Assembly (NCBI GenBank): GCA_036679605.1
Contig: JAZDCZ010000291.1
Span: forward strand, 26,168-90,167
Length of the DNA: 64,000 nt
From: Gemmatimonadota bacterium
GTDB lineage: Bacteria; Gemmatimonadota; Gemmatimonadetes; Gemmatimonadales; GWC2-71-9
Reading direction: 5' to 3'
This document shows positions 2,383-56,173 of this stretch, piece after piece; positions within the stretch are counted from its first letter, which is position 1, and each line of letters begins with the position of its first letter. Below the pieces are notes generated by a model. The model searched no databases, had not been told where the DNA came from, and saw only the letters and a list, made by a program, of their open reading frames with translations. The position numbers and the translations under genes were made by a program.

Positions 2383-2437
2383 TGAGCTACACGGGTTGCG
2401 TGCCGGCTTACCTGTAGCGATCTTTTTTCGCCTTCTA

Positions 2438-2511
2438 GCCCCGCTAGCTCAACTGGCTAGAGCAACTGACTCTTAATCAGTAGGTTCGGGGTTCGAGTCC
2501 CTGGCGGGGTA
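2438..2511 (+). tRNA. tRNA-Lys (CTT)
   Basis: Acceptor stem GCCCCGC/GCGGGGT, D-arm AGCTCAACTGGCTAGAGC, anticodon arm ACTGA-CTCTTAA-TCAGT, T-loop GTTCGAGTCC. CCA is not encoded. Confidence 0.95.
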
Positions 2512-2560
2512 CTGTCATCCCAATGTGCTTGTGCTCCTTGCTTTGCCAGAGGGGGACGTA

Positions 2561-2720
2561 TCGGGGTTCACGAACGGCCGCTTGTGGGCGGCCGTTTGTG
2601 CGCTCGCTTCGGCTCAATCGCTTTCGCGATTTTCCCTCAGCTCCGCGTCAAGTCCCTGGCGGGGTACTGTCATCGCAACATGTTTGAGCTCCTTGCCTTG
2701 TCGGAAGGAGACGTATCGGC
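2561..2720 (+). repeat. Duplicated tRNA-Lys 3' end plus trailer, interrupted in the T-loop by an 80-bp hairpin insert
   Basis: TCGGGGTTC (2561-2569), insert 2570-2649, then AAGTCCCTGGCGGGGTACTGTCATC, which matches 2496-2519. Weaker similarity continues through the trailer. Confidence 0.8.
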
Positions 2721-2843
2721 GTTGATCTGCGCGAGGGCTTTGCCCGTACTCGATCCGCTCTTCCCACCCCAACACCTTACCCCTCGCGTCGAGTCTCTGG
2801 CGACCGCCCTCGCCGACGGCTCCAGTTGCGGTAGCATCCCGTC

Positions 2844-3581
2844 CTATACGGGCGTTACGACGCCGTTCTCGCCTGGTGATTTGAGGCGGTTGATGGGTCG
2901 TTGTTGCGCCATCACGCGTTCGGCGAAGTCGAGCCGTTCGGCAAGTTCCGCCAGCTGACCGGCGTTCTCGGCAAACTGCTGCGCTTGCCGATCGCGCATC
3001 TCCGCAAATCGCATTTCAATCAACTCTTCGGCGTCCGCAAAGCGCGACGCCACGGCTGCGAGCCGGTTCACGTCTTCCGCCTGGAGGCGCGGAGCACGCG
3101 AACGCTGCGGCAGGAGACCGAACGCCACAAGGGCGCGTCGAGGGAGCTTGGCCACGAACTCGAGGGCCGTGATAGCGTAATGGAACGGATTGACCGTTCG
3201 AGCCAGGGCTGTGAAGCGGGTGGCCTCGTATACGCCCAATGCCATGTCGATGATATCGAGGATTTCCTGGTCCGCGCCGTCGGCATACCGGGAGTGGAAG
3301 ATGTTCCGGAGGACCGCGACATCCATCCGCACGGTCGGGCCGGGATCGGTGACGTTGGCAGTCGCTGCATCCAGTCCGGCGGCGTGCACGACCTGGATTA
3401 CGCGCGGCAGCATCCGGTTGATCTCTGAACGGGCACTTTGCGCTCCATCCCAGTCCACCAGCAGGTCGTCCGCAACGTAGCCGGCACGCTCGAAATAGGT
3501 CTCCACCAGCTCGCGGAAGCGGCGGAGATCTCGCGATCGTTGGCGGTTTCTGAAGATCGTAAGCTTGTTGCAGGGTATCAT
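2844..3581 (-). CDS. Hypothetical protein with coiled-coil-like C-terminus
   Basis: 245-aa ORF with natural composition; no recognised family motif. Confidence 0.6.
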   Translation of the reverse strand: MIPCNKLTIFRNRQRSRDLRRFRELVETYFERAGYVADDLLVDWDGAQSARSEINRMLPRVIQVVHAAGLDAATANVTDPGPTVRMDVAVLRNIFHSRYADGADQEILDIIDMALGVYEATRFTALARTVNPFHYAITALEFVAKLPRRALVAFGLLPQRSRAPRLQAEDVNRLAAVASRFADAEELIEMRFAEMRDRQAQQFAENAGQLAELAERLDFAERVMAQQRPINRLKSPGENGVVTPV

Positions 3582-3738
3582 GGTGTCCTGGACGAGAAAG
3601 AGTGTTCGTGGGTTTCAACAGCGGCTACTCGCCGCAGCCCCCACGGCTCGTATGTCCCTATGCCGGCCGGTGTTCGACCCTGCACTGGTGTACAGCTCTA
3701 TGCGCTCAATTACCTCAAGCGTAATATACCGCAACAAG

Positions 3739-3864
3739 TTTCTCTTCAACAACTTCTAGTTTTTGACGGGCGCCTTATGGCGTGGCCATTCGTGGGGCCC
3801 CAAATGGGACCCCAAATCCCTCGCACCTCGCACTTTCTGGCCGGGCCTTGCATCTTCTAGCCCC
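3739..3864 (+). repeat. ~125-bp upstream module, copy 1 (copy 2 at 9209-9339), with a 12-bp tandem repeat and the kinase-head promoter
   Basis: Shared TTTCTCTTCAACAACTTCT, TGGG(G/A)CCCCAAA x2, CACCTCGCACTT and CTTCTAG..ATGAC. Confidence 0.8.
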
Positions 3865-4509
3865 ATGACCGAAATCACGTCCAAGCTTCCAGTGCCCTCG
3901 CCGACCGCTACCGTATCGAGCCACTTGGGCGAAGGTGGCATGGCGACGGTTGACCTGGTGCACGGTGTGAAGCACGACCGCTATTCACGATGGGACTCAT
4001 GTCGCCGAGTTGCTGGAGTCACCGTGGCGCTGACCGTTATGATGGCCTGTGCCACCTCGACACCTCCTTCCCTCACGCCGCTGGCCACACTTGAACACAC
4101 AGAGGCATGGATTACCGAGTGGCTGCCGCGGCTGGCATCCGGTCGCATCCTCCGAGGAGAGATTGTCACGATACTGACCGTGACTGATGTAAGCGTTAAA
4201 GAGTGCGAGGTTCGCTTCCGCATGATCTGGGATGCCGAGTTAGTAGTGGGGCCAGACGCCGGGCCCATCGGCCCGGGAACTATCCGAGAGGAGAGCTTCT
4301 CATGGGCCGAGGTCAGTACGATCAGCATCACACAGTCGGAGGCGTCCGATGGCTTGGTCGGGATCAGTTTTGCCCTGCCGGGTGAAAAGACGGTCGACAT
4401 CATTGCGTTCTCATTCGCCGACGCGCTCGCGAACGCCTTTCGCCACTCACGGGACATGTGCCGAGCGCCGGTCTCTTCCGAGGATCTGAAGGCGAAGGTG
4501 GGGAATTGA
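3865..4509 (+). CDS. Chimeric ORF: decayed kinase head + lipoprotein-like cargo + kinase C-terminal tail
   Basis: Starts MTEITSKL...HLGEGGMATVDLVHGVKHDR, then VAGVTVALTVMMAC (lipobox-like) and an unrelated domain, and ends SEDLKAKVGN*. Confidence 0.65.
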   Translation: MTEITSKLPVPSPTATVSSHLGEGGMATVDLVHGVKHDRYSRWDSCRRVAGVTVALTVMMACATSTPPSLTPLATLEHTEAWITEWLPRLASGRILRGEIVTILTVTDVSVKECEVRFRMIWDAELVVGPDAGPIGPGTIREESFSWAEVSTISITQSEASDGLVGISFALPGEKTVDIIAFSFADALANAFRHSRDMCRAPVSSEDLKAKVGN

Positions 4510-7160
4510 CCGAGATCACGTCCAAGCTCTCGAACGCCCTCGCGGACCGCTACAAAATCGAACGCCACTTGGGTGAAGGCGGCATGGCGACTGTCTACCT
4601 CGCGGAGGACTTGAAACACGAGCGTAAGGTTGCGCTCAAGGTATTGAAGCCCGAACTGGCTGCCGTTCTAGGTGCCGAGCGCTTCGTGCAGGAGATCAAG
4701 ACCACCGCCAATCTCCAACACCCGCACATTTTGCCGCTGTTTGACAGTGGGACGGCGGGAAGGCGGGAAGGCGGGACGGAGTTCCTCTACTATGTGATGC
4801 CGTTTATCGACGGCGAGACGCTGCGCGACAAACTCAACCGCGAAACACAACTCGGTATCGAGGAAGCGGTCCGCATCACCTGTGATGTCGCCGACGCGCT
4901 GGACTATGCGCACCAGCAAGGGGTGATCCACCGCGACATCAAGCCGGAGAACGTCCTGCTTCACAATGGCCGTCCGATGGTAACGGACTTTGGGATCGCC
5001 TTAGCGGTGAGCGCTGCGGCCGGCGGACGGATGACCGAAACCGGACTCTCGCTCGGCACGCCGCACTACATGAGCCCCGAGCAAGCAACCGCCGAGAAAG
5101 ACCTCACTGCGCGGTCGGACATTTACTCCCTCGGCAGTGTGCTCTATGAGATGCTGACTGGAAGCCCACCGCACGTCGGTTCGTCAGCGCAACAGATCAT
5201 CATGAAGATCGTCGCGGAGGATGTGCAGCCCGTCACAGAGTTGCGGAAGTCGGTGCCGCCCCATGTAGCCGCCGCCACGACCAAATCGTTGGAGAACTTA
5301 GCGGCGGATCGGTTCGAGAGTGCGGCGAAGTTCGCGGAGGCGTTGACCAACTCCGCCTTTGTGTTCAACAGTGTCACCAGGATGCAGGCGACGCGTCCGT
5401 CCTCGGCGGGAACACAGAACCGCACCGCCGTCGCGTTTGCTGCATTATCAGGCGTACTTGCGCTCCTGCTTGGGCTGACGGTGCTGGGACAACCCAATGC
5501 GAACGTTTCCGACGTTGGCGTTGCCCGGTTCCCGCTGGTCGGCAATCCGAATTTCCGAATCAACACTGGCAGCACACAACCGTTCGCCATCTCGAGCGAC
5601 GGTGGGACGATCATATTCGCGGCGGATACCGGCAACGGCATGCATCTGTGGGTCAGAACGCTCGCCGATCCAACGCCTCGGATGCTCGAAGGGACGGACC
5701 GGGCGACCCAGCCGGCAATTTCGCCCGACGGCGAGTGGATCGCGTTTGTCGTCGACAATCACATCATTCGCAAGGCACGGCTCGACGGCGGCGGTGTGGA
5801 AGAGGTCGCATCGATTGACAATATCTCGGCGTCGGTCAGTTGGGCGTCGTCTGATGAGATTCTTTTCGAGTTGATCGGCATCCCCGACGGTATTCATCGC
5901 GTAAGCGCGTTCGGCGGCCGCCCTGAACTGTTGATCCCATTGGATACCACGATAAGTGAGGTTCGCCACCGACGCCCCTTTGTCCTTCACCACGAGCGTC
6001 GCGTGCTCTACGCAAGTATGTTGGCCGACGGCTCGTGGAGTCTCGCGATTTTTTCTCTCGACGACGGCCGACGCACACGTCTCGGGATCGACGGGATTCA
6101 AGCGCTCGGGGTGCTCGATGGCCATCTCGTGTATTCGCGCGACGACGGGGCGCTGATGGCCGTTCCGTTCGACGTTCGGGGCATGCGAACGCGTGGAGAT
6201 CCCCGACAATTGCGCGATCGCGTTTTGAGCAGCCCCACAGGTACGGCCGTGATTCTGTCCACCAATGGCAACCTCGTGTATCGCGCCCCGGTGGCCCAGC
6301 CCATGCGACTCTTCTTGGTCGATAGCGCAGGATCCCTGACGCAACTCGGCACGTGGGTTCGCCCATTCGACACGCCCCGTTTCTCCCCAGATGACCGTTA
6401 TGCCGCCGTGACGATTGCCGACGAAGGCGACACGCAAGACCTCTGGATCGTGGATCGCGCAACTGGGGAGGCCACGCAGCTCACGCGGGGGGCACAGGCG
6501 CACCTACAAGATTGGACGCCGGACGGCTCGAGCCTCATATACTCCGAGGGCCGGGTACTCTGGACCATTCGCATCGATGGCAGCGGCGGACCGCGCCGAA
6601 TAACAGCAGTAGAAGGCACCATCAGGGGGGCCTCGATCATGCCCGACGGCGCCTCGATCATCGTATCCCACTCGGACATCGGGACGCTCACCGAAGAACT
6701 CGTTCGGGCGTCGCTACTGGACAGCTCCGTTACGCCCATCGGTTCGGCGGGTCGCCTGCGACCCTTCTTTCCACGAGTTTCACCCGACGGGCGCTGGGTC
6801 GCATACCATGGTCGCAACGACCGGGAAGTACACATCAGTTCGATCGATAGTGCTGGACGAGTACAAGTGTCCGATGCGGGCGGGTACGCACCGATCGTGT
6901 GGGGACCTAACAGTGACCGGGTGTACTACCACACCTCTGCTGGGATCACGGTCGCCGAGATACGTACCAACCCTCGACTCGCAGTCGTCAGGCGTCGTGA
7001 GCTGCATGGATTTCCATTCTTCAGCACGGTGCACGACGTGACTGACGATGGCAGGACGTTCTTGGTGGTGGCACCCGTGGGTGGGGGAAACGAGGACATC
7101 CTCGTCGCACTCAACTGGGGATCGGAGGTCCTGGCGATGCTGCGTAACCAGAACGATTGA
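4506..7160 (+). CDS. Ser/Thr protein kinase K1 (kinase-TM-TolB/PD40 propeller)
   Basis: TTG start overlaps the upstream TGA. Motifs GEGGMATVY, VALK, HRDIKPEN, DFG, GTPHYMSPEQ; TM segment; SPDG repeats. Confidence 0.9.
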   Translation: MTEITSKLSNALADRYKIERHLGEGGMATVYLAEDLKHERKVALKVLKPELAAVLGAERFVQEIKTTANLQHPHILPLFDSGTAGRREGGTEFLYYVMPFIDGETLRDKLNRETQLGIEEAVRITCDVADALDYAHQQGVIHRDIKPENVLLHNGRPMVTDFGIALAVSAAAGGRMTETGLSLGTPHYMSPEQATAEKDLTARSDIYSLGSVLYEMLTGSPPHVGSSAQQIIMKIVAEDVQPVTELRKSVPPHVAAATTKSLENLAADRFESAAKFAEALTNSAFVFNSVTRMQATRPSSAGTQNRTAVAFAALSGVLALLLGLTVLGQPNANVSDVGVARFPLVGNPNFRINTGSTQPFAISSDGGTIIFAADTGNGMHLWVRTLADPTPRMLEGTDRATQPAISPDGEWIAFVVDNHIIRKARLDGGGVEEVASIDNISASVSWASSDEILFELIGIPDGIHRVSAFGGRPELLIPLDTTISEVRHRRPFVLHHERRVLYASMLADGSWSLAIFSLDDGRRTRLGIDGIQALGVLDGHLVYSRDDGALMAVPFDVRGMRTRGDPRQLRDRVLSSPTGTAVILSTNGNLVYRAPVAQPMRLFLVDSAGSLTQLGTWVRPFDTPRFSPDDRYAAVTIADEGDTQDLWIVDRATGEATQLTRGAQAHLQDWTPDGSSLIYSEGRVLWTIRIDGSGGPRRITAVEGTIRGASIMPDGASIIVSHSDIGTLTEELVRASLLDSSVTPIGSAGRLRPFFPRVSPDGRWVAYHGRNDREVHISSIDSAGRVQVSDAGGYAPIVWGPNSDRVYYHTSAGITVAEIRTNPRLAVVRRRELHGFPFFSTVHDVTDDGRTFLVVAPVGGGNEDILVALNWGSEVLAMLRNQND

Positions 7161-7306
7161 CGCTGTCAAGATCCGTGATCTAACGGGAACTTGGGCACAT
7201 TCTTGGGCACATCGACCCGGCAAACACACGCAACTAGACGTAGGCCCCGCGCACAGGGCTTGCTCGAATCCTCGCCAAACCCCGCATCGCACCCCATCTT
7301 AGCCCC

Positions 7307-7441
7307 ATGACCGAGATCACCTCCCGGCTCTCGACCGCCCTCTCCGACCGCTACCAGATCGAGCGCCGTCTCGGCGAAGGCGGAATGGTGACCGCCAATC
7401 CGATTTGGGCTGCGGGGCACCGGTGGGTCGACCGGGAGTAG
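7307..7441 (+). pseudogene. Orphan kinase head (leader ORF)
   Basis: MTEITSRLSTALSDRYQIERRLGEGGMVTA..., TAG at 7439-7441. Preceded by TCGCCA-N17-CATCTT. Confidence 0.85.
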
Positions 7442-7443
7442 CT

Positions 7444-9009
7444 GTGAACATGCCATTGACCATTGCTTCCGCGATTGTCTTGACCGCCGTTCTGGTCAGC
7501 GGGTGCGGACGAGGAAACAACAACGCCGGCGACGGCGGGTCCACGATCACCGTTCTCTACGAAGGCGACGACTTCCTTCTTGGTCCCGCGGGAGATGACA
7601 GCCCAAAGTTCCTCGTGTTCCTTCCGCTGGTGCGAGGCTATGGGTCCGAGGCCCAGCCAAGCCTCGCCGAGCGCTGGGAGCACTCTCTCGACTACACGAC
7701 CTGGACCTATCACCTGCGCCGTGACATCCGCTGGCACGACGGCGCGCCGGTTACTGCGCACGACATCGCGTTCTGCATCCGACTCTTCGCTCACCCCGAT
7801 GTCCTCTTTGCTCAGGGCCAGATTGTCGGGGCTGACGCCACGGCCCTGGACGACTACACGCTCCAGATCACGTGGCAGAACCCCACGGGTCCGGCGGGTG
7901 CACTGTCCGGCTGGACGGTCTATTATCCAAAGCACCTCTTGGAAGGACTTGACCCACAGGATTTCTACACCTTGGATTTCTGGACCAGCCCAATTGGCAA
8001 CGGACCGTATCGGTACGTTCGGCACGTCCCGCAGACGATGATCGAGTTGGAGGCGAATCCCGATTACTACGCAGGACCGCCGGCGATCGAGCGCGTCGTG
8101 CTCAAGCTGAGCACGGCGAACAAGGTCATCGAACTCACGAGCGGGAACGCAGACGTTGCGTACTATGTCCGTCCCGTTGACATCCTCAAGCTCCGCGCCG
8201 AGCCCGAGTTCCGAGTCTATCATCTGTTCGCGTTTAGTGAACCCCAGGCGATTCACTGGAACCAGCGACACCCGTTGCTTGCCGACTCGCGCGTTCGTCA
8301 GGCCCTCTCTCATGCGATCGATCGGCGGGAGCTCTCACGCGTGAACAATCTTCCGGACGAGATGCCTTTGGTGGGTGGCTTGTCACCAGAGGATCGCAGC
8401 GATCGACTCTACCGAGAGGGCAAGCTCGACGCGGGTCCTTCGTACGATCCAACCGCTGCGAGGCAACTCCTCGATGAGGCGGGCTGGGTCGATCGCAACG
8501 GCGACGGCGTACGCGAGCGAAACGGAGTCGCGGCCCGGTTCACGATGATCGTTCAGCAGGGCCGCCTCAGCGCTGTGGAATCGGCGGTGTTCATCCAAGA
8601 CCAGCTCCGGAGGGTGGGTGTCCGGATGGAGATCCGGCCGGTGGACCGGAGCGTATGGCACAACGTCTATCGCGCGGCCGATTTTGACGCCACGATCGGG
8701 GACGTCCCCAACGTGCCCCAATGGCTCCTTGATCGCGACTTCTTCGGTGAAGGAACCAGGATCGGATACCGCAATCCCGAGATCGTGCGGTTACTGGAGA
8801 CACTGACCACCGAGTTCGATCCTACCGTTCAGGACACCCTCTACGCTCAGATCAACGAGATGCTCCGCCGCGACATGCCCGTCACGTTTCTGTTCCCGTA
8901 TGTCGAGTCCATTGTGGCACACCGCAGGATCCAAGGAATTCGCACGCCAGAAAGGGCGAACCTCCTGTCGTACATTGCGGACTTGTGGATCGAAGAGGAC
9001 CGCCGCTAG
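7444..9009 (+). CDS. ABC transporter substrate-binding lipoprotein, family 5 (peptide/nickel)
   Basis: Lipobox LVSGC; LAERWEHS..YTTWTYHLR..RWHDGAPVTAHD; PIGNGPY; VRQALSHAIDR. Start is GTG 7444 or ATG 7450. Confidence 0.88.
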   Translation: MNMPLTIASAIVLTAVLVSGCGRGNNNAGDGGSTITVLYEGDDFLLGPAGDDSPKFLVFLPLVRGYGSEAQPSLAERWEHSLDYTTWTYHLRRDIRWHDGAPVTAHDIAFCIRLFAHPDVLFAQGQIVGADATALDDYTLQITWQNPTGPAGALSGWTVYYPKHLLEGLDPQDFYTLDFWTSPIGNGPYRYVRHVPQTMIELEANPDYYAGPPAIERVVLKLSTANKVIELTSGNADVAYYVRPVDILKLRAEPEFRVYHLFAFSEPQAIHWNQRHPLLADSRVRQALSHAIDRRELSRVNNLPDEMPLVGGLSPEDRSDRLYREGKLDAGPSYDPTAARQLLDEAGWVDRNGDGVRERNGVAARFTMIVQQGRLSAVESAVFIQDQLRRVGVRMEIRPVDRSVWHNVYRAADFDATIGDVPNVPQWLLDRDFFGEGTRIGYRNPEIVRLLETLTTEFDPTVQDTLYAQINEMLRRDMPVTFLFPYVESIVAHRRIQGIRTPERANLLSYIADLWIEEDRR

Positions 9010-9195: not shown

Positions 9196-9593
9196 TTCCG
9201 GTAAACACTTTCTCTTCAACAACTTCTCGTTTTCGACTGTCGCACTTCGGAGCAGCCGTTTGCCGTTTGAGACCCCAAGTGGGACCCCAAACTCCGCACA
9301 CCTCGCACTTCCTCGCCGAAACTCACACCTTCTAGAGCGATGACGGACATGGTGAGACATAGCTGATACTCCCGTGTTATCGTGGCCCTTTCAACGGCCG
9401 CCACTCTTGCGAGCATGTGTACCGCGCTTCATAGTCAATCCTAATATTGGAGACATCTACGCCGGTGGTCCTGGGACCCCGCCGCCGTACTGACGCCGTG
9501 TAGGACGCCCCGTAGGACGCCCCGCTAGACGCCCGCCCGACGACGCGACCCCTCCCAGCCACCGGTGATCATCACGCCTGGAGGGTGGGAACT

Positions 9594-12545
9594 ATGATCC
9601 GCTTGTGTCGCGTCGCGCTCGGCCTTGTCCTCGCAGTGTCTGCACCGTCCGTCGCCACGGCGCAGAGCGACACCGACGGCTGGCGCACGATCGAGTTCGA
9701 GACGAGCCAGGTCACCGCGCCCGACATCGCGATCACGCCCGACGGCCAGTCGCTGATCTTCACACTGCTCGGGCACCTGTTCCGCTTGCCCGTCGAGGGT
9801 GGTGAAGCCGAACAGCTCACCTGTGTTCTCGCAAGACGGCAGCCGGGTGGCATTCATCTCCGATCGGGACGGGAGCGAAGGCAACGTCTTTGTTCTGGAG
9901 CTAGCCGATGGGCAGATTGCGCAGGTCACGCACGAAGTCTGGGCGGGCCGGCCCATCTGGTCTCCTGATGGCGAGGAGATTGTGTATCTGCGGTTCCTGC
10001 GTGACGTATCGGGGCGGTTCTTTGTACTCTCTGAAGTGCGCCGGGTTACCCTGCGCACAGGAGTGCTGGAAACCGTCAGTGCTACCGCGCGGGAGTTCGG
10101 CTCGGTCTTCTATCTGCCGGATGGCCGCTTAGCGTGGACCATCATCGAGCGCCAGGCTCAGATTGGATCTCCCCGTGCAACCACACGGATCGAGGTGGTG
10201 AATCTGCAGGGCGCGGTCTCCCCGCTGCGCACCGTTGAGGGCGTCGTGCACCGTGTCGTACCGAGTCCCACCGACGGTGGTCTCTATTATCGGCGCTATT
10301 TACAGTTGAGCGACCTATTGCTTCAACCGGAAGGTTTGCTGTTCGTGCCGCTCCCCGAGGGTGACGAGCGACAAATCGTATCCGTGTCGAGCTGGCACTT
10401 TTGGTGGTGGAGGCCGCGATTTTCGGTGGCCAGCGACAACAGGACTCTATATGTGGGCGACTCGGGGCGGCTGTGGAAGATTGCGCTGCCCAATGGTGCC
10501 CGCGAACCCATTGCATTTCGCGCCCGTGTTCAACAGGACCTTCAAGACCCGGTGCGGCCACCTAGATGGGAGGCGACGGCACTTGGAGGCTCGGCGGCGC
10601 CGCGCACCGTCTTGCACCCCAGGCTCTCGCCGGACGGCCGCAGGCTGATCTTTGGAGCGGCTGGCTTTCTCTGGGAGCAATCCCTCGGCTCCGGTCAGGG
10701 TGCACCATCGGGTGGCGGACAGGCGACGCGACTGTTTCAGGGGAATACGTTCGAGCAAGCCCCTGCTTTTTCGCCCGACGGACGGCAGTTGGCATTCGTT
10801 CGCAGCGAGGATGGCGAACGAGAAGTCAGAGTCTTCAACTTCGAAAACCGACAGGAGCGCACGCTGGCTTCTGGGCTGCGGTATGGGCAGCCAAGCTGGA
10901 CTCGCGACGGGGAGCGGCTCGTCTTCACCGAGTTTGCATCCGGGAACGCTAGCCTAGTTGCCGTGGTAGCTGGTCGCGCCCGCACCTCTCTGCTGACGGG
11001 GAATCGCTTTACTACTCGGCCAACCTAACCGGCACCAGGACCCTCTACCGCCTCCCGCTGAAGGGAACCGCCAATCCGCAGCCGATCACGCAACTGGCGC
11101 GCCACCTGAACGACGGTCTCGTCTCCCCGGATGGGAAATGGCTAGCCTTCCGGCGCAACAGTGAAATCTGGGTAGCGTCCCTTGGTACCGAGCCCGTCGA
11201 TGAGACCGACATCCATCAGCTCAGCCCGGACGGGGGCGACAGTTTCGACTTTACCGCCGACGGCTCGGCGGTGATCTATTCCGCCGGTAACCGCGTGTGG
11301 CACCACCCACTTGGGGTCGGCGAGTCGGAGGAGATACCCATCCGGCTGGAACTTCAGCCCCCCATGCCGCCCTCTGTGCTGGTGCGGCGGGTGCGCGTGC
11401 TCGATTTCGACGCGGGCGGCTTTGGTCCGGAAACTTCTCTCTTCATCGAGCAGGGGCGCATCCGCTGGATTGGCCCTCAACGTGGACGACGGGTTCCACG
11501 CGAGACCGTCGTTGTCGACGGAGGTGGCCGATTTGCCATACCCGGTTTGTTCGACGCGCACGTGCACAACATCGGAAGTGATCAGGCTGCCTTTCTGGCG
11601 TATGGCATCACCTCGGTGCGCGACCCAGGCGGCGGACTTGCCCACTTGAACACGATGGCGGATCGAGGTGAAACCACCGGCGATCCCGGGCTACGCTACT
11701 TCTTCTCGGGTGACGTTTTCCACGGCGCCCAGCCGTTTTTCAGTGGGTTGCTCCAGATTGTCAACGAAGGCGAAGCTCGAACCCATGTGCGCCGCTGGAA
11801 GGAACAGGGCGCCCAGTTCATGAAGGTCTATACCGACCTGCCCTGGCCGTTGCAGCGGGCGGTGGCGGAGGAAGCCCGACTGCTGGATCTGCCCGTAGCT
11901 GGGCACGGGATGAGTGTGGAAGAAATTACCAAGAGCGTGACCCTGGGATACGCTGTCTTGGAACATGTCAGTATGAACCATCGCCTCTACGACGACGTGC
12001 TCCAGATGCTGGCCGCCGCGGGCACGCGGTGGGACCCGACGCTGGGGGTGCTGGGAGGCAATGACTTGTTGCTGCGGGAGGAACCCGAACGCCTTGCGGA
12101 CGCGAAGTTGCGGGCATTCGCCTCGGCGCAGGCCCTGCGCGCCGCCCGGATCGGCTGGAACATCATAGGGACCAAAGTCTTGCGGGGGTATGTGTTCGAA
12201 CAGCTCGCGGGAATCCGCGCCGCCCATCGGCGGGGCGTCAAACTCTTAGCGGGAACCGACGCTCAGCCAGGGAGTCTAGTCGGGTCGTCCCTCCACTGGG
12301 AGCTGGAACTCTTTGCCCAAGCCGGGCTGCCGCCACTGGACGTGCTCCGCATCGCCACCCAAGAGGCGGCAGCGGCCGTTGGCGCGGAGGACGACCTCGG
12401 CACACTCGAGGTCGGCAAGCTCGCCGACATCGTGCTGCTCGATGCGAATCCCTTAGAGGACATCAAAAACACGCAGACGATCTGGCGCGTGATCAAGGGT
12501 GGGTTCGTGTTCGATCCGGAGGAGTTACGACCGGAGCGGAACTAA
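9594..12545 (+). pseudogene. Secreted PD40/TolB-repeat amidohydrolase, broken by two frameshifts
   Basis: Signal peptide plus TPDGQSLIF (from 9594), frame change near 9820, SPDG repeats, frame change near 10965, then PGLFDAHVH, AGTDA and GTLEVGKLADIV ending at 12545. Confidence 0.75.
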
Positions 12546-13016: not shown

Positions 13017-14657
13017 ATGACCGAGATCACGTCCAAGCTCTCGACCGCCCTCGCCGACCGCTACAAGATCGAACACCGAGTCGACGTGTCACTTTCGATG
13101 AGGCGGCTCATGGGATTGGCGGCGATTCCCTTGATCGCCAGCCTATGCCTCGGGTGCTCGTCGGCTGCTGAAGATCCGGACCGCAGCTCGACGATGACCA
13201 TCCTCGCGGATCACAGCGACAAGACCATCAATCGCTACCAGACGAAGTTCCTGCTGTGGCTTCCACTGGCAAGCGGCCCGGAGTGGGCAGACGAATTCGA
13301 AGCAAGGCGTCGGCTCGCCGAATCGTGGGAACACTCTCCGGACTATCGCACCTGGACGTATCACCTACGGGACGACGTGCGGTGGCACGACGGCGTTCCT
13401 GTCACCGCGCACGATGTGGCGTTCAGTCTCGATCTGTTCGGCCACCCCGATGTGCTGTTCGCTGCGGGCGGCGGCTTGGCGTCCTTGATCGATTCGATGT
13501 CCGTGCCCGACGACCACACGCTCACGCTGGCTTTGACGATGCCGGCCTACCTGGGCGGCATGGGTTGGACGGTCTACTTTCCTAGACATCTGCTCCAGGA
13601 CCTCGACCCCGCCGATTTCTACGAGTGGGACTTCTGGACGCGGCCGGTCGGCAACGGCCCCTACCGCTTCGTGCGGCATGTTCCAAAAACGGTGCTCGAA
13701 CTCGAGTCGAACCCGGACTTTTACGCCGGGGAGCCAGCGATCAAGCGGGTGTTGGTGAAGTTCAGCAGCGCGAACCCGGTCATCGAGCTGACGAGCGGCA
13801 CCGTGGATGTCGCTTCCAATATTGGGCCGACCGCTGTGTACCGGTTCAGAGCCGATCCCCGGTTCGTGGTCTACCACCGGTACGACTGGTCCGAGCTGCA
13901 GCTCATTTACTGGAACCAGCGCCACCCGCTGTTCGCCGAGGCCGCAGTTCGATTGGCGCTGAGCCACGCGATCGATCGGCGCGGAATCGCGCAAGCGATG
14001 GACTTGCCTGATGAGATGCCATTGATTGGCGGACTGTCGAACCAGGTTCTGGGAGACCATCCGTATACACGCAGAGGGTGGGATCAGGGTCCGGCCTACG
14101 ATCCTGCGACGGCGAAACGGCTCCTGGATCAGGCGGGCTGGATCGACAGCGACGGGGACGGGATTCGCGAGAGGGATGGCCGGGAGGCGCGTTTCGCCCT
14201 GTTGGCCAGGCGCGGACGGTACCCCGCTGCCGAGGCACTGGCGCTACTCATTCAGGATCAGTTGCAGCGCGTGGGAGTCTCGACCGAGATCCGCTCGATG
14301 GCAGGTGGCCTCGCCCGGGACGCGATCCGCTCGGGCGACTTCGATGCGGCGATTAGCTGGTTAGTAGACCAAGATCCGCTTGATGTCCTCGAGGAATGGT
14401 TCGGCGAGCCCTTGCCCTTCGGATACTATGACGCGGAAGCCGCGCACCTGCTCGAGGCAATCGGCGCGGAGCCCGATCCCAACGCCCAGGATACTCTCTA
14501 CTCTCGGATCAACGAGATTTTCCGCCGCGACATGCCGGTCACGTTCCTCTTCCCCGGGCTCGAGAACAACGCTTCCCACCGCCGGATCCAGGGATTCCAC
14601 CCGAACCTGTTTCTGCACTTTGCGGAGGAGCTTTGGATCGAGGAGGGGAACCACTGA
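13017..14657 (+). CDS. ABC family-5 substrate-binding lipoprotein fused in frame to a kinase head
   Basis: MTEITSKLSTALADRYKIEHR, then its own probable start ATG 13098 (MRRLMG...LCLGC). SBP_bac_5 motifs; paralog of 7444-9009. Confidence 0.88.
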   Translation: MTEITSKLSTALADRYKIEHRVDVSLSMRRLMGLAAIPLIASLCLGCSSAAEDPDRSSTMTILADHSDKTINRYQTKFLLWLPLASGPEWADEFEARRRLAESWEHSPDYRTWTYHLRDDVRWHDGVPVTAHDVAFSLDLFGHPDVLFAAGGGLASLIDSMSVPDDHTLTLALTMPAYLGGMGWTVYFPRHLLQDLDPADFYEWDFWTRPVGNGPYRFVRHVPKTVLELESNPDFYAGEPAIKRVLVKFSSANPVIELTSGTVDVASNIGPTAVYRFRADPRFVVYHRYDWSELQLIYWNQRHPLFAEAAVRLALSHAIDRRGIAQAMDLPDEMPLIGGLSNQVLGDHPYTRRGWDQGPAYDPATAKRLLDQAGWIDSDGDGIRERDGREARFALLARRGRYPAAEALALLIQDQLQRVGVSTEIRSMAGGLARDAIRSGDFDAAISWLVDQDPLDVLEEWFGEPLPFGYYDAEAAHLLEAIGAEPDPNAQDTLYSRINEIFRRDMPVTFLFPGLENNASHRRIQGFHPNLFLHFAEELWIEEGNH

Positions 14658-14778: not shown

Positions 14779-15621
14779 ATGCCCGAGATCACCTCCCGGC
14801 TCTCGACCCCGTGGAGATACGCGATGAGATTTCACACAAAGACCTTACCCTACCCGGCTTGCTTCTGCGTCCTACTCGCGGCCTGCGCTCCCAAGAGTGT
14901 CACGCAGGAGCCCAAAGAGGTGGTCGATCTTGGGGCTCTTGTAACCGAGGATCTAGCCGAGCGCGTGTGGGGCAAGGCGTTTCTAGCCGCAAACAACTTT
15001 GAGCGCCCCAATTCGTTTGAGGTGATCAATTTTGAGTTCCAGATGGAAGGCGGGAGCGTGTCAGTGTCGAATGCCTATTACACCCTTTTCAACCACGGCG
15101 GCCCCCACGTTGATGCGCCCAACCACGTTGGCGTTGGAAGCGGTCTAGATAGCTACCAGGTTGAGTCGTTTGCCGGACCAGTCAAGGTCTTCGATGTGCG
15201 TCAATTTCCCAAGGGCCGTACCATTCCCGCAGAGGCGTTCAATGAATCAGTGCAGCCAGGTGACGTCGTCCTCATCTTCACGGGCTATACACCGCCTAAG
15301 ACTGACGACGCCTTTCCTGAGACGATCACGTTGACCCGCGTAGCGGCGGAACATCTCGCAAGCATCCCGGTTCGCGCATTCGGCACGGATGCCTTTAGTG
15401 TGGCAAACTTGCAGGATACAAGCGCCGTCGACGCCGAAAGTGCAACGGCAAGAGCGGTCCCCATTCACCACTCATTCCTGTCGCGTGGGATCCCTGTGTA
15501 TGAACAGCTCTTCAACGTGGACCAACTCCTGGGCAAGGAGAACATGTACTTTGTCGGCGTGCCGTTGAATATCCGAGGCGGCGATGGGATGATCGTGCGA
15601 CCCGTCGTGTTCGTGTATTAG
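14779..15621 (+). CDS. Cyclase-family (kynurenine formamidase-like) lipoprotein fused to a kinase head
   Basis: MPEITSRLST head; own ATG at 14824; lipobox LLAAC; HGGPHVDAPNH, GDVVLIFTG, GTDAFS, PLNIRGGDG. Confidence 0.82.
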   Translation: MPEITSRLSTPWRYAMRFHTKTLPYPACFCVLLAACAPKSVTQEPKEVVDLGALVTEDLAERVWGKAFLAANNFERPNSFEVINFEFQMEGGSVSVSNAYYTLFNHGGPHVDAPNHVGVGSGLDSYQVESFAGPVKVFDVRQFPKGRTIPAEAFNESVQPGDVVLIFTGYTPPKTDDAFPETITLTRVAAEHLASIPVRAFGTDAFSVANLQDTSAVDAESATARAVPIHHSFLSRGIPVYEQLFNVDQLLGKENMYFVGVPLNIRGGDGMIVRPVVFVY

Positions 15622-15637: not shown

Positions 15638-18232
15638 ATGACCGAAATCACGTCCAAGCTCTCGACGGCCCTCGCCGGCCGTTACAAGATAGAACGCCAC
15701 CTGGGCGAAGGTGGCATGGCCACCGTCTACCTAGCCGAGGACTTGAAGCACGAGCGTAAGGTTGCGCTCAAGGTGTTGAAGCCCGAACTGGCTGCCGTTC
15801 TAGGTGCCGACCGTTTCGTGCAGGAGATCAAGACCACCGCGAATCTTCAACATCCGCACATTTTGCCCTTGTTCGATTCAGGCGAGGCTGAGTCTTTCCT
15901 TTATTATGTCATGCCGTTCATCGACGGTGAGACGCTGCGTGACAAGCTGAACCGCGAAACGCAGCTTGGCATCGAGGAAGCGGTCAGCATCACGGCCGCT
16001 ATCGCGGACGCGCTGGACTACGCGCATCGCCAGAACGTCATCCATCGGGACATAAAACCCGAGAACATCCTGCTCCACGAGGGCCGTCCGATGGTGGCGG
16101 ACTTTGGAATTGCATTGGCGGTGAGCGCGGCAGCCGGCGGGCGCATGACTGAAACGGGTCTCTCGCTCGGCACGCCGCACTACATGAGTCCGGAGCAGGC
16201 GACCGCCGAGAAAGACCTCACTGCGCGGTCGGACATTTACTCACTCGGAAGTGTGCTGTATGAGATGTTGACGGGGGATCCACCTCACACGGGATCCTCG
16301 GCGCAAAAGATCATCATGAAGATCGTGGCGGAAGATGTGCAACCGGTGACTGAGCTGCGGAAGTCGGTGCCGCCGAACGTGGCTGCCGCGACGGCCAAGT
16401 CCTTGGAAAAACTAGCGGCGGATCGGTTCGAGAGCGCGGCGAAATTCGCGGAGGCGTTGACGGACACGCGCGTGATGTCCGCGGGGTCGTTCACTGCACA
16501 GGCGGAGAGACCGACAGAGGCATCGTTGTCGCAAATTTTTCGCTCAGGTTGGAAGCAGATCGTTGCGTTGATGGTTCTAGGCGGGGCACTTGGTTGGCTT
16601 ATGCGGCCCTCGCTCAGAGCTGAAGCACATTTGGTGACGCGCTTCACGATCCCCGTACCGCAGGGACACGTCCTGCTCGACTTTGCGCCCAACCTCGCGA
16701 TCTCGCCCGACGGGCGCACGTTAGCCTATTTCGTTGACGGTGTACTCCACAAGCGAGAACTGGACCGTGACGATCCCGTGCGATTCGACGACGCGGGGGG
16801 ATGGTGCTGTCCATCCTTCTCTAGCGACGGGAACTGGATAATGTTTTTGGATGTGCGGACGGACGTACACCGGATAGCGGTCGATGGAGGACCGGTCGTC
16901 GACGCGCCGATGCGTTTCCTGAGCGCTGAGAGCTTCATTAGGGGGCGCTATAGAGGGGGTCTCGAGCGCGCTACCGATGACGGGTGGGTGCCGATAACGA
17001 TCCCCGACAGTGTGGGTGGCGAGAGCGCCCATATGTGGCCGCAGTTGTTGCCCGGCGGCGACCTCCTACTGTTCACCGTACTCGGGCCCAGCATGATGTG
17101 GCACAACGCCCAAGTGGTCGTCGAGGAACTCGCGAGCGGAAGCCGTACCACGATCGCTGACGGCGCGACGTTCGGGCGCTATGTACCGACTGGGCACATC
17201 GTCTATACTGACGCAAATGGAACGTTAGAGGCGGTGCCGTTCGATTTGAAAGCACGGCGCGTCACCGGCGACCCCGTGGTGGTGGAGTCGGGTGTGCGCA
17301 CGGCGTATTGGGGTGGGGCGGCCTCATTTGCAATCGCCGAGAGAGGGACCTTTGCATTCGTGCGCGGCTCTAGCTGGGAGGATCACCTCCTAACGTGGGT
17401 TGATCGAAGGGGTGAACTGATCGAGCAGATCGGTAAGCCGGTGACCGTTGAGGTCCTGGACCTCTCCCCTGACGATCGGCAAGTTGTAACGTACGTGGCG
17501 TCGAGCAATGCAGACATTTCTCGATTTGATGCGATAACCGGGGATGCGGTTCGCCTGACCTTCGATCCAACCACCGAAGACAACCCCATCTGGTCTCCAG
17601 ATGGTCGGCGTATTGCCTACCGCAAGATTTACTCTGGAAATGAACATCGGATCGATATCTTGAACGTGGCTGGTCAGACGGATCCGGAGTCCGTGTTTTC
17701 CGACAGGGAAGTCTTCGTTCCCAGATCGTGGTCGCCTAATGGAGACTGGCTGTTGTTAGAGGACGGGGAGAATGATTCGATGGTCGTTGTCGACCTCGAC
17801 AACAAAGAAGTCGTAACAATCCCCCATGGCCAGCAGGGGCAGTTCTCCCCGGACGGCAGGTGGCTCGCGTATACGTCTTCCGAGACGGGGAACACGGAGG
17901 TGTACGTCATGTCCTTCCCCAGCCTTCAAGGGCGCCAACAAGTGTCGGTCAATGGTGGACGATGGCCGCGGTGGTCAGTGCAGAGTGCTGAACTGTTCTT
18001 CCGGCGAGGGGACACGATCATGGTGTCAAAGGTGTCGACGGGGGACGCGTTCGTACGGGAAGATCTACCGCGACCACTGTTGGCTGCCTCGGGGTCCCCA
18101 GAAGGAGGGTATGACGTGAGTGCCGACGGGCAGCGGTTTCTCGTGGCTGCGCGGAATCCCGACGCGCCGGCGCGGGAAATTCATGTCGTATTGAATTGGT
18201 TCGAGGAAGTGAAGGCGAAGGTGGGGAATTGA
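15638..18232 (+). CDS. Ser/Thr protein kinase K2 (kinase-TM-PD40 propeller)
   Basis: All kinase motifs intact; TM; SPDG repeats; ends WFEEVKAKVGN*. Confidence 0.92.
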   Translation: MTEITSKLSTALAGRYKIERHLGEGGMATVYLAEDLKHERKVALKVLKPELAAVLGADRFVQEIKTTANLQHPHILPLFDSGEAESFLYYVMPFIDGETLRDKLNRETQLGIEEAVSITAAIADALDYAHRQNVIHRDIKPENILLHEGRPMVADFGIALAVSAAAGGRMTETGLSLGTPHYMSPEQATAEKDLTARSDIYSLGSVLYEMLTGDPPHTGSSAQKIIMKIVAEDVQPVTELRKSVPPNVAAATAKSLEKLAADRFESAAKFAEALTDTRVMSAGSFTAQAERPTEASLSQIFRSGWKQIVALMVLGGALGWLMRPSLRAEAHLVTRFTIPVPQGHVLLDFAPNLAISPDGRTLAYFVDGVLHKRELDRDDPVRFDDAGGWCCPSFSSDGNWIMFLDVRTDVHRIAVDGGPVVDAPMRFLSAESFIRGRYRGGLERATDDGWVPITIPDSVGGESAHMWPQLLPGGDLLLFTVLGPSMMWHNAQVVVEELASGSRTTIADGATFGRYVPTGHIVYTDANGTLEAVPFDLKARRVTGDPVVVESGVRTAYWGGAASFAIAERGTFAFVRGSSWEDHLLTWVDRRGELIEQIGKPVTVEVLDLSPDDRQVVTYVASSNADISRFDAITGDAVRLTFDPTTEDNPIWSPDGRRIAYRKIYSGNEHRIDILNVAGQTDPESVFSDREVFVPRSWSPNGDWLLLEDGENDSMVVVDLDNKEVVTIPHGQQGQFSPDGRWLAYTSSETGNTEVYVMSFPSLQGRQQVSVNGGRWPRWSVQSAELFFRRGDTIMVSKVSTGDAFVREDLPRPLLAASGSPEGGYDVSADGQRFLVAARNPDAPAREIHVVLNWFEEVKAKVGN

Positions 18233-18249
18233 CTGAAATCACCTCCAAG
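18229..18249 (+). pseudogene. 7-codon orphan kinase head overlapping the K2 stop
   Basis: GGGAATTGACTGAAATCACCTCCAAG is the same tail/head junction as at 4501-4527 (LTEITSK), followed by unrelated sequence. Confidence 0.75.
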
Positions 18250-18383
18250 GAGTCCCCTTCCCGCAGGCAGGGGTTATCGCTATTCGACTTTGCGCGACGC
18301 CACGAGCTGTGTGAGTAGACCCGCGAGCGCAGCGAACGTGATGCGGCTTGCCGAGTTGTTGACCAGTGTCAACTCACCTTCCG

Positions 18384-22940: not shown

Positions 22941-25670
22941 ATGACAGAAATAACTGAGCGCCTCTCCAGTGCCCTCGCCGATCGCTACCGTCTCGAGCGC
23001 GAGCTGGGTTCTGGCGGCATGGCTACCGTCTACCTCGCCCACGATGTGAAGCACGACCGCAAGGTCGCGGTAAAGGTGCTCCGGCCTGAACTTGCCGCAG
23101 TGTTGGGCGCCGAGCGCTTCCTGCAAGAGATCACGACAACGGCGAACTTGCAGCACCCGCACATCTTGCCGCTTTTCGACAGTGGGACGGCAGGTGGACC
23201 GGACGACGGCATCACGGACGATTCCGAGCACGGGCGTGGCATGCCTCACCCTTTCCTCTACTACGTGATGCCGTTCATCGACGGCGAGACGCTGCGCGAC
23301 AAGCTCAACCGCGAGACGCAGCTCGGCATCGACGAAGCGGTCAAGATCACCACAGACGTTGCAGACGCACTTGACTACGCGCACCAGCAAGGGGTGATCC
23401 ACCGCGACATCAAGCCGGAGAACATCCTGTTGCAGAATGGCCGTCCGATGGTGGCGGACTTCGGCATCGCGCTGGCGGTGAGTGCGGCAGCGGGTGGGCG
23501 GATGACAGAGACGGGCATCTCGCTAGGGACGCCGCACTACATGAGTCCCGAACAGGCGACGGCCGAGAAGGATCTCACGAACCGTTCCGACATCTACTCG
23601 TTGGCCTGTGTGTTGTATGAGATGCTAACTGGCGAGCCGCCACACACGGGGGCGTCGGTGCAAATGGTTATCGCCAAAGTGGTGACCGAGGAACCTCGGC
23701 CCGTCTCTGTCCAGCGGAAAACGGTCCCACCGCATGTTGCATCGGCGATCCACTGTGCGCTCGAGAAACTTCCTGCCGATCGCTTCGGGTCGGCCGCTGC
23801 ATTTGCTGAAGCCCTGACCAGTCCGACTATTGCCGCCGTCACTTTCGCGCGTACGATCACTAGCGGTACGCAAGCTCGCGCGCTCCGATGGCCGTTTGCG
23901 GTAGCCGCCGCTGTACTGCTAGCGGTTGGCGTGGTGGTAGGTCGTGCGTCGGCCCCGGCGGGAAGTGAAGTCACCCGAGTCGCTCGGCTCGGATTGAATA
24001 CGCCAGCAACCGATCCCATTTCCTTTTCAAACGCACCAATCGCCGCCGTGTCGCCGGACGGACGATCTTTGGTGTATGTGAGTGGCAGCGGCGACGGCCA
24101 ACAACTCGTATCGCGTCCGCTGGAGTCCCGGACCGTGTCACGAGTTGCAGGGACCGCTGGTGCATCTAGTCCGTTCTTTTCCCCCGGTGGAGACTGGATC
24201 GGATACTTCCACAAGGACGGTATTAGCAGGGTGCCGTCGACCGGCGGCACACCGGTGTCAGTCGTGGACGATGCGAGCAACTTTCGGGGTGCGACCTGGT
24301 CGTCGAGTGGAGAGATCCTTTACGGCCGGGCCGGGCCGGTTTGGCAGGAGCGAGCTGGTCCACTATGGGCGGTTCGCGCCGATGGGAGCGGGGTGCCGCG
24401 TTTGGTTGCCGCCCCGGACACGAGCCGTGGCGTTTGGGGATTCTGGTTGCCGGATGCGCTGCCGGACGGCCACCACGCGGTGGTTACCTTGCTTGGCGCC
24501 ACATTGGGTCGCTGGCAGGGGATCGCGGTCATCGATCTCGACTCGGGTGAGTGGCGCATCGTCGTTCCGCCGCCCGCTTTCGGCGCCCGATACGACCCAT
24601 CAGGACACCTCATCTACTTACAGACCGGAGGCGCACTTCAGGCTGCACCGTTTGACGCCGAGCGTCTCGAGGTCACCGGACCGGCCGCGACACTTGCCGA
24701 CGACGTGCACCTTTCGAGTTGGAGCACCCCGCAGCTCGCGATATCACATCAAGGAACGCTGGCTTACCTAGGGCAACAACCGCACGAACTGGCTGTGGTC
24801 GACCACGATGGCGTCTCGCAATCTGTTGCCGCGGTGAGCCGTATTTTCCATCATCCGCGATTTTCTCCGGATGGACGTCGAGTCGCGGTGGATATCGCCC
24901 ACGAGGGCAGTCGTGACGTCTGGATTCAAAACCTCGACCAGGGCACATTGACGCGTGTTACTTTCGAAGGAGATGCCAACGATCCTATTTGGACGCCGGA
25001 CGGGAAACGCATCACGTACTCGTCTGCGCAATCGGGGACGCGCGGTATCTATGAGACGAGCGCCGACGGATCCGGAACACCCGACTCGTTGTTGACGGTT
25101 GCAGGATCGAACACGACCGCTGGTTTTTGGACGCCAAGCGGCGATCGGTTGATCGCAATCACGGACGCTCCGTCCAGCGGGCTCGATCTGCTGATTCTGG
25201 ACAGTGATGGCGCGAACGTGGAGCCGCTCGTCGCAACGCCGTTCGACGATGCGCATCCGGCACTTTCGCCCGACGGCCGGTGGCTCGCATACGTGTCAAA
25301 TCAGTCTGGCCAAAGCGAAGTCGTCGTTCGATCGTTCCCGACATTGTCGACACAAGTACAGATCTCGACCGCAGGCGGCACCGAACCCGTTTGGGGGCCG
25401 AATGGAAGGGAACTCTACTACCGAGCAGCAGGGGAAACTGAGGGACCGGAGATGGTCGTCGCTCGGATCGAGACCCGATCCGGCTTCCGCGTTGTTTCGC
25501 GGGAGCGGCTCTTTCGCGCTGACGAGTTTGTGACCGCACCGCCGCACGCGAACTATGACGTTGCGCCTAACGGTAGCGGGTTCGTAATGGTGCGGCTTGG
25601 GCGAGCGAGTCGATTCGAGATCCTGCTCAACTGGCCCGAGGAGTTGAAGGCGAAGGTCGGGAGGGAATGA
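22941..25670 (+). CDS. Ser/Thr protein kinase K3 (kinase-TM-PD40 propeller)
   Basis: Kinase motifs intact; insert after LFDSG; ends WPEELKAKVGRE*. Confidence 0.92.
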   Translation: MTEITERLSSALADRYRLERELGSGGMATVYLAHDVKHDRKVAVKVLRPELAAVLGAERFLQEITTTANLQHPHILPLFDSGTAGGPDDGITDDSEHGRGMPHPFLYYVMPFIDGETLRDKLNRETQLGIDEAVKITTDVADALDYAHQQGVIHRDIKPENILLQNGRPMVADFGIALAVSAAAGGRMTETGISLGTPHYMSPEQATAEKDLTNRSDIYSLACVLYEMLTGEPPHTGASVQMVIAKVVTEEPRPVSVQRKTVPPHVASAIHCALEKLPADRFGSAAAFAEALTSPTIAAVTFARTITSGTQARALRWPFAVAAAVLLAVGVVVGRASAPAGSEVTRVARLGLNTPATDPISFSNAPIAAVSPDGRSLVYVSGSGDGQQLVSRPLESRTVSRVAGTAGASSPFFSPGGDWIGYFHKDGISRVPSTGGTPVSVVDDASNFRGATWSSSGEILYGRAGPVWQERAGPLWAVRADGSGVPRLVAAPDTSRGVWGFWLPDALPDGHHAVVTLLGATLGRWQGIAVIDLDSGEWRIVVPPPAFGARYDPSGHLIYLQTGGALQAAPFDAERLEVTGPAATLADDVHLSSWSTPQLAISHQGTLAYLGQQPHELAVVDHDGVSQSVAAVSRIFHHPRFSPDGRRVAVDIAHEGSRDVWIQNLDQGTLTRVTFEGDANDPIWTPDGKRITYSSAQSGTRGIYETSADGSGTPDSLLTVAGSNTTAGFWTPSGDRLIAITDAPSSGLDLLILDSDGANVEPLVATPFDDAHPALSPDGRWLAYVSNQSGQSEVVVRSFPTLSTQVQISTAGGTEPVWGPNGRELYYRAAGETEGPEMVVARIETRSGFRVVSRERLFRADEFVTAPPHANYDVAPNGSGFVMVRLGRASRFEILLNWPEELKAKVGRE

Positions 25671-25755
25671 CCAATGTCCAATAATCAATGTCCAATGAGC
25701 AAGGATCTGTGCTTGGCAGCGTTGGACATTCTGCATTGGACTTTCTGCGATTGAC
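25667..25755 (+). repeat. Heptamer inverted-repeat spacer (copy 2)
   Basis: Nearly identical to 22852-22940. Confidence 0.88.
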
Positions 25756-41007: not shown

Positions 41008-41012
41008 GCGAT

Positions 41013-41135
41013 GGAGTTGAAGGCGAAGGCTGGGAGGGAATGACCAATGTCCAATAAACGATGTCCAAAGAGCAAGGATCTGCGCTTGGCAGCGTTGGAC
41101 ATTGGACATTCTGCATTGCTCATTCCGCGATTGAT
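41013..41135 (+). repeat. Orphan kinase tail (ELKAKAGRE*) plus heptamer spacer (copy 3)
   Basis: GGAGTTGAAGGCGAAGGCTGGGAGGGAATGA lies just after K7's own stop and is followed by AATGACC AATGTCC ... TTGGACA TTGGACA. Confidence 0.88.
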
Positions 41136-47578: not shown

Positions 47579-47619
47579 TCTAGGATTTCTCTGAGATCCT
47601 CTTCGATTCTCCTCTCATC

Positions 47620-47778
47620 ATGACCAAGATCATTCGCTCGGTTCTCGACCGCCCTCGTGCGTTCTTCAATTCTCGCGCTCGGCGGCTTAGGGCAAGAAGT
47701 GCATCCATAAGGATGCTGTTCCTGGCCGAGCCCGCCCTCCAGGGTGGGACTACTCGCGGAACGGTCGCATAGGTTGCA
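47620..47778 (+). repeat. Degenerate kinase head (47620-47657) followed by a promoter repeat truncated in its -10 box (47701-47778)
   Basis: ATGACCAAGATCA...TCTCGACCGCCCTCG. GCATCCATAAGGATGC...CCCGCCCTCCAGGGTGGGACTACTCGCGG matches 38647-38724. Confidence 0.75.
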
Positions 47779-47850
47779 GGCCAGTGCCCCATAACCGACA
47801 GTGAAGCAGGCCCGCCGGCTGACATCGTAGCCGACGGGCCCGTTCTTCAT

Positions 47851-56160: not shown

Positions 56161-56173
56161 GGAATACCCTAAC

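Follow-up and report, generated by a model that had tools for sequence, protein, structure and literature searches.

The window analysed here is a stretch of 64,000 nt from contig C214 of a Gemmatimonadota assembly (G000 in the following; C numbers denote contigs, other G numbers other genomes and L numbers loci). G000 is a short-read bin; it comprises 434 contigs with a total of 6.7 Mb, its completeness being 96.5% and its contamination 6.3%. Close to the left end of the window an open reading frame (ORF) of 214 amino acids (aa), 3865-4509, precedes K1, the gene for a Hanks-type Ser/Thr kinase (Pkinase E 1e-45, PD40 E 6e-13, both above the cut-off). Long kinase-domain matches are numerous in the assembly (106, 11 of these on C214). 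An earlier note on this DNA, made from the sequence alone, had described the ORF as a lipoprotein-like cargo held in frame between the head and the tail of a kinase gene. We found that the open frame indeed consists of three parts, namely a kinase start of 117 nt, a nearly whole gene for a lipoprotein with a predicted PH-like fold and a kinase tail of 30-37 nt (Table 1).

Table 1. Features of the window discussed in the text (positions are those of the window)
Feature	Position	Strand	Basis or remark
tRNA-Lys(CTT)	2438..2512	+	ARAGORN; the kinase-rich region starts behind it
Duplicate of the tRNA-Lys 3' end plus flank	2648..2674	+	Integration scar
Hypothetical gene, 245 aa, divergent from the head	2844..3581	-	Of 200 family genomes, 25 have full-length homologs (43-74% identity)
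Putative promoter	3828..3856	+	Variant -35 TCGCAC, 17 nt, -10 CATCTT, 8 nt to ATG
Decayed kinase head, 117 nt	3865..3981	+	Alignment; -1 and -2 deletions
Probable native cargo start M-G-L-M	3990..4002	+	Frame shifted by one base relative to the body
Cargo: signal-like stretch, Cys codon 4048-4050, predicted PH-like domain	4003..4472	+	Homolog, structure model
Kinase tail with purine-rich leader of K1 and TGA/TTG overlap	4473..4509	+	Unambiguous from 4480 on; CTCTTC at 4473-4478 could belong to either tail or cargo
K1, intact Ser/Thr kinase with PD40 propeller, 884 aa	4506..7160	+	Pfam
Spacer, promoter and second orphan head (88 nt), before SBP_bac_5 gene (7450-9009)	7186..7396	+	Pfam, head profile
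Orphan head (61 nt), in-frame fusion to second SBP_bac_5 gene	13017..14657	+	Pfam, head profile
Orphan head (29 nt), in-frame fusion to cyclase-family gene	14779..15621	+	Pfam, head profile

The head was aligned with five intact kinase starts of the window. It carries a deletion of 1 nt and one of 2 nt, net -3, which bears out the decayed head with compensating indels described in the earlier note. The tail could be aligned with four intact kinase ends of the window over 4480-4509 and, together with its flanks, matches a joint of the tandem kinase array on C311 at 94.8% over 58 nt; such tandem arrays are present on C311 and in G208. As had also been noted before, the ORF ends with EDLKAKVGN and its stop codon (AAT-TGA) overlaps the TTG start codon of K1 at 4506. 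Both this start codon and the purine-rich leader of K1 lie within the tail. Measured against a typical kinase gene of 2.6-2.7 kb, about 2.5 kb is gone and about 0.5 kb of other DNA stands in its place. The replacement claimed in the earlier note thus stands with regard to these sizes and to the recurrent retention of both ends described below, whereas a single event and an origin of both ends from the same gene are further suppositions.

The middle part is unrelated to the kinases, as had been supposed: it has no Pfam match, occurs as a single copy in the assembly, and its Cys62 follows a hydrophobic stretch. A search of 1.84 billion representative proteins of all lengths returned three matches, which were the window protein itself, P0002 and P0003. 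P0003, a Ser/Thr/Gly-rich protein of 1021 aa, matched through seven repeated stretches and was judged spurious. P0002 (158 aa, E 3.5e-12, 32% identity over residues 47-202 of the window protein) begins with MRLMR and stops a few residues past a conserved Cys-x-x-Pro. It has neither kinase head nor kinase tail and is the kind of free-standing homolog that the earlier note had named as support for capture. No homolog of the fused length was found in this search, and word-index searches returned the window protein and then P0002 only. The cargo had no match in 40 relatives (including G015) and none in viral contigs; borderline matches in 400 genomes of the phylum (E 2e-4 to 1e-3), situated inside frames of about 1090 aa, were rejected.

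At 3990-4001 the window reads ATG GGA CTC ATG (M-G-L-M), in a frame shifted by one base against the body of the cargo, where the homolog has MRLM. The pattern M-x-L-M occurs with a frequency of 1.9e-5 per codon position, corresponding to a chance of about 6e-4 for 30 placements with a single homolog as the basis. Probably this is the cargo's own start. Taken together with the end of the homolog, the captured piece would therefore extend from 8 nt before the probable start to the last few codons of the cargo gene. The possible translation starts for the body (3865, 3940 and 3967) are all situated in the head; the public gene call begins at 4024.

A hydrophobic stretch followed by Cys is present in the cargo (MMAC) and in P0002 (GVAC), the box being non-canonical. 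An AlphaFold model of the cargo, calculated from the two sequences, reached a pLDDT of 76.8. The top rows of a structure comparison were of the PH/PTB/FERM type (VIA; best Z 8.0, root mean square deviation 5.0 over 109 residues), Foldseek gave a best E of 0.018 with the same model, and the Atlas search led to unnamed clusters (0.91) and to a bPH_3 lead (0.77). The modelled cargo appears to resemble PH domains, with middling scores only, and its most likely role is that of a binding lipoprotein anchored in the membrane. The chances that the composite ORF is expressed appear about even.

The head is preceded by a putative promoter. Among 34 heads with a (C/T)ATCTT box, 30 have TGGCCA, TCGCCA or TAGCCA exactly 17 nt upstream; the hexamer of the head described here is a variant, and its -10 box stands at the upper end of the distances to the ATG found elsewhere (5-8 nt, mostly 6). 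A TANNNT peak was also found 6-7 nt before other ATGs of the genome (78 and 81 against a background of about 40), suggesting that the head repeat carries a leaderless promoter of the sigma70 type. A consensus scan did not call the promoter at this head. The search for a terminator stem-loop within 2400-4700 gave one terminator-like match, inside the cargo and at chance level.

The locus is spanned by contigs of sequencing runs, a point on which the earlier note had made its reading depend. One contig of run X1, which may be the source sample of the assembly, extends over 3506-4516 and shows no difference. Run X2 belongs to another study; one of its contigs (4225-4530, with 34 differences and 3 gaps) spans the right junction. 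Another (3954-4162, with 7 differences and no gap) spans the shifted start; it holds only 28 bases of the head, below the 31-base rule for the left junction. Pieces of the cargo were also present in X4 (10 differences in 175 positions) and X10 (3 in 162).

The retention of kinase ends is not confined to this locus. Profiles were made of 16-codon windows from 14 kinase paralogs, and fragments outside full kinase genes were counted (E up to 0.5; matches at contig edges dropped). Orphan fragments in G000 numbered 27 for codons 1-16, 10 for codons 17-32 and 4 for codons 33-48. Each of 14 further interior windows gave 0-3 despite 26-102 total matches, and the last 16 codons gave 11 orphan tails. 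What is retained are specifically the ends. With five heads added by hand we obtained a set of 32 orphan heads, which are 21-154 nt long (median 58; the method gives 95 nt for the present head instead of the 117 nt of the alignment) and have unrelated junction sequences. Five of the 32 run in frame into a protein of more than 200 aa, which is about the chance level according to our own estimate of one frame in three reduced by stops in linkers; selection for in-frame fusion genome-wide was rejected on these numbers. One in-frame head, on C88, likewise provides the start of a lipoprotein-like gene. Since in-frame fusions are not above chance, the in-frame state of the composite ORF is weak evidence. 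The locus, which the earlier note had called the clearest snapshot of the mechanism, is an instance of the pattern, but stronger evidence for a mechanism comes from other loci, at which units are swapped at the head.

Other arrangements of head, foreign DNA and tail are present in G000 on C212 (tail 89 nt behind a 784-aa gene), C419 (tail 65 nt behind a 422-aa gene) and C169 (enclosing an antisense fragment), and a kinase gene on C26 has an internal deletion. Leftover tails stand behind each of three kinase genes whose ORF ends earlier.

Head-cargo units were found with changing neighbours. C265 has three head-gene units in a row. The first cargo of the row is also found on C88 and in G001, 92% identical from -36 relative to the ATG of the head, and the match in G001 reaches +35 of the next head, where a kinase follows instead of the second cargo. 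C301 has the second cargo (89%, from -11 to +46 of the next head) with other DNA upstream of it, the homology of the third with C87 starts at -40, and upstream DNA common to C169 and C301 stops at +37. The recurring cargos are thus 89-97% identical in different surroundings, and their homology is bounded at -40, -36 or -11 and at +35, +37 or +46 of a head ATG. From their translations we take them to be FAA-hydrolase, RidA-like and membrane-protein genes. The kinase ends are also the most similar parts of the gene at silent positions: identity at fourfold sites of the 14 paralogs is 0.66 in the first 12 codons and 0.64 in the last 14, while the kinase domain has 0.43-0.56 and the propeller 0.27-0.39. 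At the amino-acid level the paralogs agree well in the kinase domain (identity 0.81-0.97) and much less in the C-terminal part (0.22-0.40).

The pattern recurs across genera. In the regions fetched from G001, a congener with a genome of 3.7 Mb, 12 of 24 heads are truncated within the kinase domain, one further head is cut by a contig end, and six genes have an internal deletion with both ends kept. The promoter-head pattern is present in 12 of 300 other family genomes; of 24 matches in 11 of these, 11 are orphans, which belong to four further genera. In the single-contig genome G146 all three matches are orphans, and two 20-kb regions contain six orphan heads and no intact kinase. The single-contig genome G160 has a sandwich of head, three antisense genes and tail. 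Three of three metagenome matches are truncated. DUF1330 genes had matches in 86 genomes, and the 30 best of these loci showed neither a head nor a tail.

The surroundings of the tRNA-Lys gene have one trait of a tRNA-targeted island, the duplicated tRNA 3' end at 2648-2674; no match to PF00589 or PF07508, the families in which a resident integrase was sought, was found on C214. Ten of 30 orphan heads lie within 10 kb of a tRNA gene (3.8 expected), with a P value that is overstated because heads cluster. At window 2770-2822 there is an older head-like remnant with a -10-like box and ACCGCCCTCGCCGAC, without ATG, which resembles the tRNA 3' end as well. The spacer at 7186-7309 contains a tandem GGGCACA repeat and recurs three times between consecutive kinases of another genus (L217, G678:C8), and a similar repeat is situated 130 nt from a tRNA-Leu gene beside an integrase on C355. 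Repeats of this type are presumably arm-type sites of integrases. An integrase-arm-like repeat precedes only 1 of 16 matches to a head and therefore does not support site-specific entry.

Several other features of the window were recorded. A propeller-plus-amidohydrolase gene is apparently split across three frames (9585-12545), and head stubs of 21 and 77 nt have no sense gene directly behind them (18230-18250 and 60027-60103). A repeated inverted-repeat-like spacer (ATGTCCAAT ... TTGGACATT) lies between kinase genes at 25670-25756, 41010-41136 and 59930-60027 and is found on C277 too. The 756-aa kinase at 38737-41040 has a non-propeller body and a leftover propeller-type tail a few bases behind it, an arrangement that recurs on C419 and in G001 (L143). 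Similar genes are found among the kinases of window 46553-59099 and of G001:C63 (L007/L150) in different order and orientation; we take the shared genes to be cysteine-synthase-like and M20-peptidase-like. At 60270-60358 ARAGORN called a tRNA-Ala(CGC) of 89 nt on the minus strand; possibly it is instead a plus-strand tRNA with a long arm. Elsewhere in the assembly, C343 has 24 tRNA genes in four clusters (60648-61513, 115276-115819, 131701-132387 and 149092-149584) at slightly lower GC, possibly a phage or an island.

On balance we consider it somewhat more probable than not that dispensable kinases in tandem are hollowed out and filled with foreign genes through illegitimate joins, and that the remaining ends become recombination sites. 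At the locus described here the starting state would have been a tandem pair, promoter-K0-K1, in a tRNA-linked accessory region. The interior of K0 would have been lost and the lipoprotein gene put in its place by one join 8 nt ahead of the cargo's start codon and another in its last codons, probably in more than one step, by insertion or homology-anchored integration and subsequent trimming. The head would have been kept with the promoter and its leaderless ATG, and the tail with the start signals of K1. A shift of one base behind the ATG of the cargo would then have left the body translatable only from the starts in the head. Throughout the clade the promoter-plus-head repeat would serve as a crossover site, presumably for a RecA-type exchange, so that head-cargo units change neighbours without a dedicated integrase.

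Several observations weigh against this reading. The duplicated cassettes may stem from co-binned populations because of the size and contamination of G000 compared with its congener; if the bin pools populations, the swaps may be differences between strains. The high identity of the gene ends could come from constraints on expression instead of recombination. Heads facing antisense DNA (C169, C301, C419:155218 and G160) are not explained by promoter capture, and they give the strongest indication that the ends are preserved by some mechanism. The cargo on C212 has a paralog on C419 behind which the tail is missing. An intact ancestor of this slot was not found, the contig of G001 ending just past tRNA-Lys, and no close donor is available for mapping microhomology at the junctions. 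Finally, all heads were intact in the regions fetched from G208 (26 of 26 in 140 kb) and G017 (23 of 23), two genomes in which the head profile is less sensitive; the pattern is therefore not family-wide. In G208, a genome of four contigs, many of the 26 kinase starts are chained head to tail (C1:418000-540000, L134-L140).

The interior of K0 could also have been replaced in one step, a break within it being resected both ways and a foreign fragment of gene size being taken up during end-joining or an aborted gap repair, possibly along a dedicated capture route. Both junctions are indeed tight around the cargo ORF, the tail follows the cargo stop at a short distance in the sandwiches on C419 and C212, a Ku gene is present in the assembly, the deletions in G001 look like single events, and CTCTTC at 4473 could be a microhomology. 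However, random capture would seldom fit an ORF so closely. Moreover, most orphan heads have no tail, an orphan head is the nearest upstream kinase piece for 4 of the 11 orphan tails, and the remnants in G001 are longer than those in G000, suggesting progressive trimming. No over-represented Chi-like word was found in tail or promoter, and no 8-mer of the tail reached z=2. We regard a one-step replacement as not very likely. Still unlikelier is a sequence of two unrelated events, in which a head remnant fused to the cargo and K1 came later from a tandem array with the last 30 bases of the preceding gene, clipping the 3' end of the cargo; no single gene would then have been hollowed out. The joint of tail and K1 is the one found in arrays on C311, C426 and C93, the TTG start of K1 depends on the tail, and the joints between kinases are kept as units from genus to genus; K1 may have brought the tail along. 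Yet tails persist behind cargo on C212, C419 and C169 where no kinase follows, and behind the three kinase genes that end before them.

An origin of the cargo as an integron cassette, which would have entered K0 at a non-classical attG site before a deletion took place, seems very improbable. Two integron integrases are encoded on C73 and C407, attC-like hairpins occur on other contigs, and insertions of this type near promoters are reported in bioRxiv 10.1101/2022.09.11.507474. But none of 42 heuristic attC-like matches of the assembly lies on C214, the same scan having detected sites on both integrase contigs, and the fixed crossover GTTRRRY is absent from the left junction, the head junctions as a whole being spread over 21-154 nt with unrelated sequences. 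According to the same paper attC sites can be lost, so that their absence is not final. Assembly-wide, 35 tyrosine-recombinase, 4 large serine-recombinase and 12 reverse-transcriptase matches were obtained, none of them on C214. A chimera between repeats might be suspected in a contaminated short-read bin with many near-identical kinase genes. A single unitig crosses both junctions, a diverged contig from another study crosses the right one, and the same pattern is present in the single-contig genomes G146 and G160, which makes a chimera a negligible explanation.

Parts of this pattern are known from other systems. In PeSL of the T4-type phages RB49 and phi1 a promoter-bearing short repeat stands before non-essential genes that are shuffled by recombination at the repeat, with no dedicated integrase identified (PMC2839356). 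The neighbour exchange within the repeat is the same here, the homology blocks ending between -40 and +46 of head ATGs. In contrast to the phage repeat as described there, the repeat is a putative promoter plus the coding 5' end of a large kinase family on bacterial chromosomes, no terminator stem-loop was found at this locus, and the tail can close the unit as a second remnant. Circles have been demonstrated for PeSL. The lpl cluster of Staphylococcus aureus is an island of tandem paralogs rearranged at a conserved stretch within the ORF, 3' end, spacer and next 5' end acting as a unit (PMC2568036). Tandem paralogs with a conserved intragenic and a variable region are found here as well, but the lpl stretch is central and shuffles halves of paralogs, whereas here the gene ends are conserved and unrelated genes occupy paralog slots. 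For the orphan arrays of the type VI secretion system and Rhs, homology-facilitated illegitimate recombination is proposed in PMC5361080; an anchor and an illegitimate join likewise lead to stubs and growing arrays, in that case 3' stubs with immunity genes, here predominantly 5' promoter stubs with cargo of many unrelated kinds. Integrons and isolated cassettes, in the preprint cited above, resemble the present units in that single genes, often for secreted proteins, stand behind repeats and use a resident promoter. The present units differ in the absence of an adjacent integron integrase, of attC and of a fixed crossover, and each has its own putative promoter. Segment replacement as such is common in bacteria according to PMC2884548. 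No description of these arrays or remnants was found in the literature searched, which covered few of the subscription journals. We regard the pattern as a variation on known repeat-mediated shuffling and put more weight on its occurrence throughout the clade than on the single ORF.

By itself the locus is a modest curiosity. For the clade within the Gemmatimonadales we tentatively put forward, as a possibility that is still doubtful, that the two ends of an expanded receptor-kinase family are the recombination sites of an integron-like platform without an integrase. If so, any gene behind the promoter-plus-head, optionally closed by a tail, would be an expressed cassette, and cassettes could be excised, re-inserted or exchanged at all kinase slots, inside a species as well as from one species to another. 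Sensor domains of the kinases would be diversified by this exchange too, and signalling arrays and gene capture would be one system. The repeat is now defined together with its boundaries and with dozens of instances. The pattern bears on the question by which route foreign genes that lack a promoter turn into expressed cassettes where no integron is involved, and suggests that a large family of signalling genes can double as genome-wide landing sites which give new genes a promoter and sometimes a start codon.

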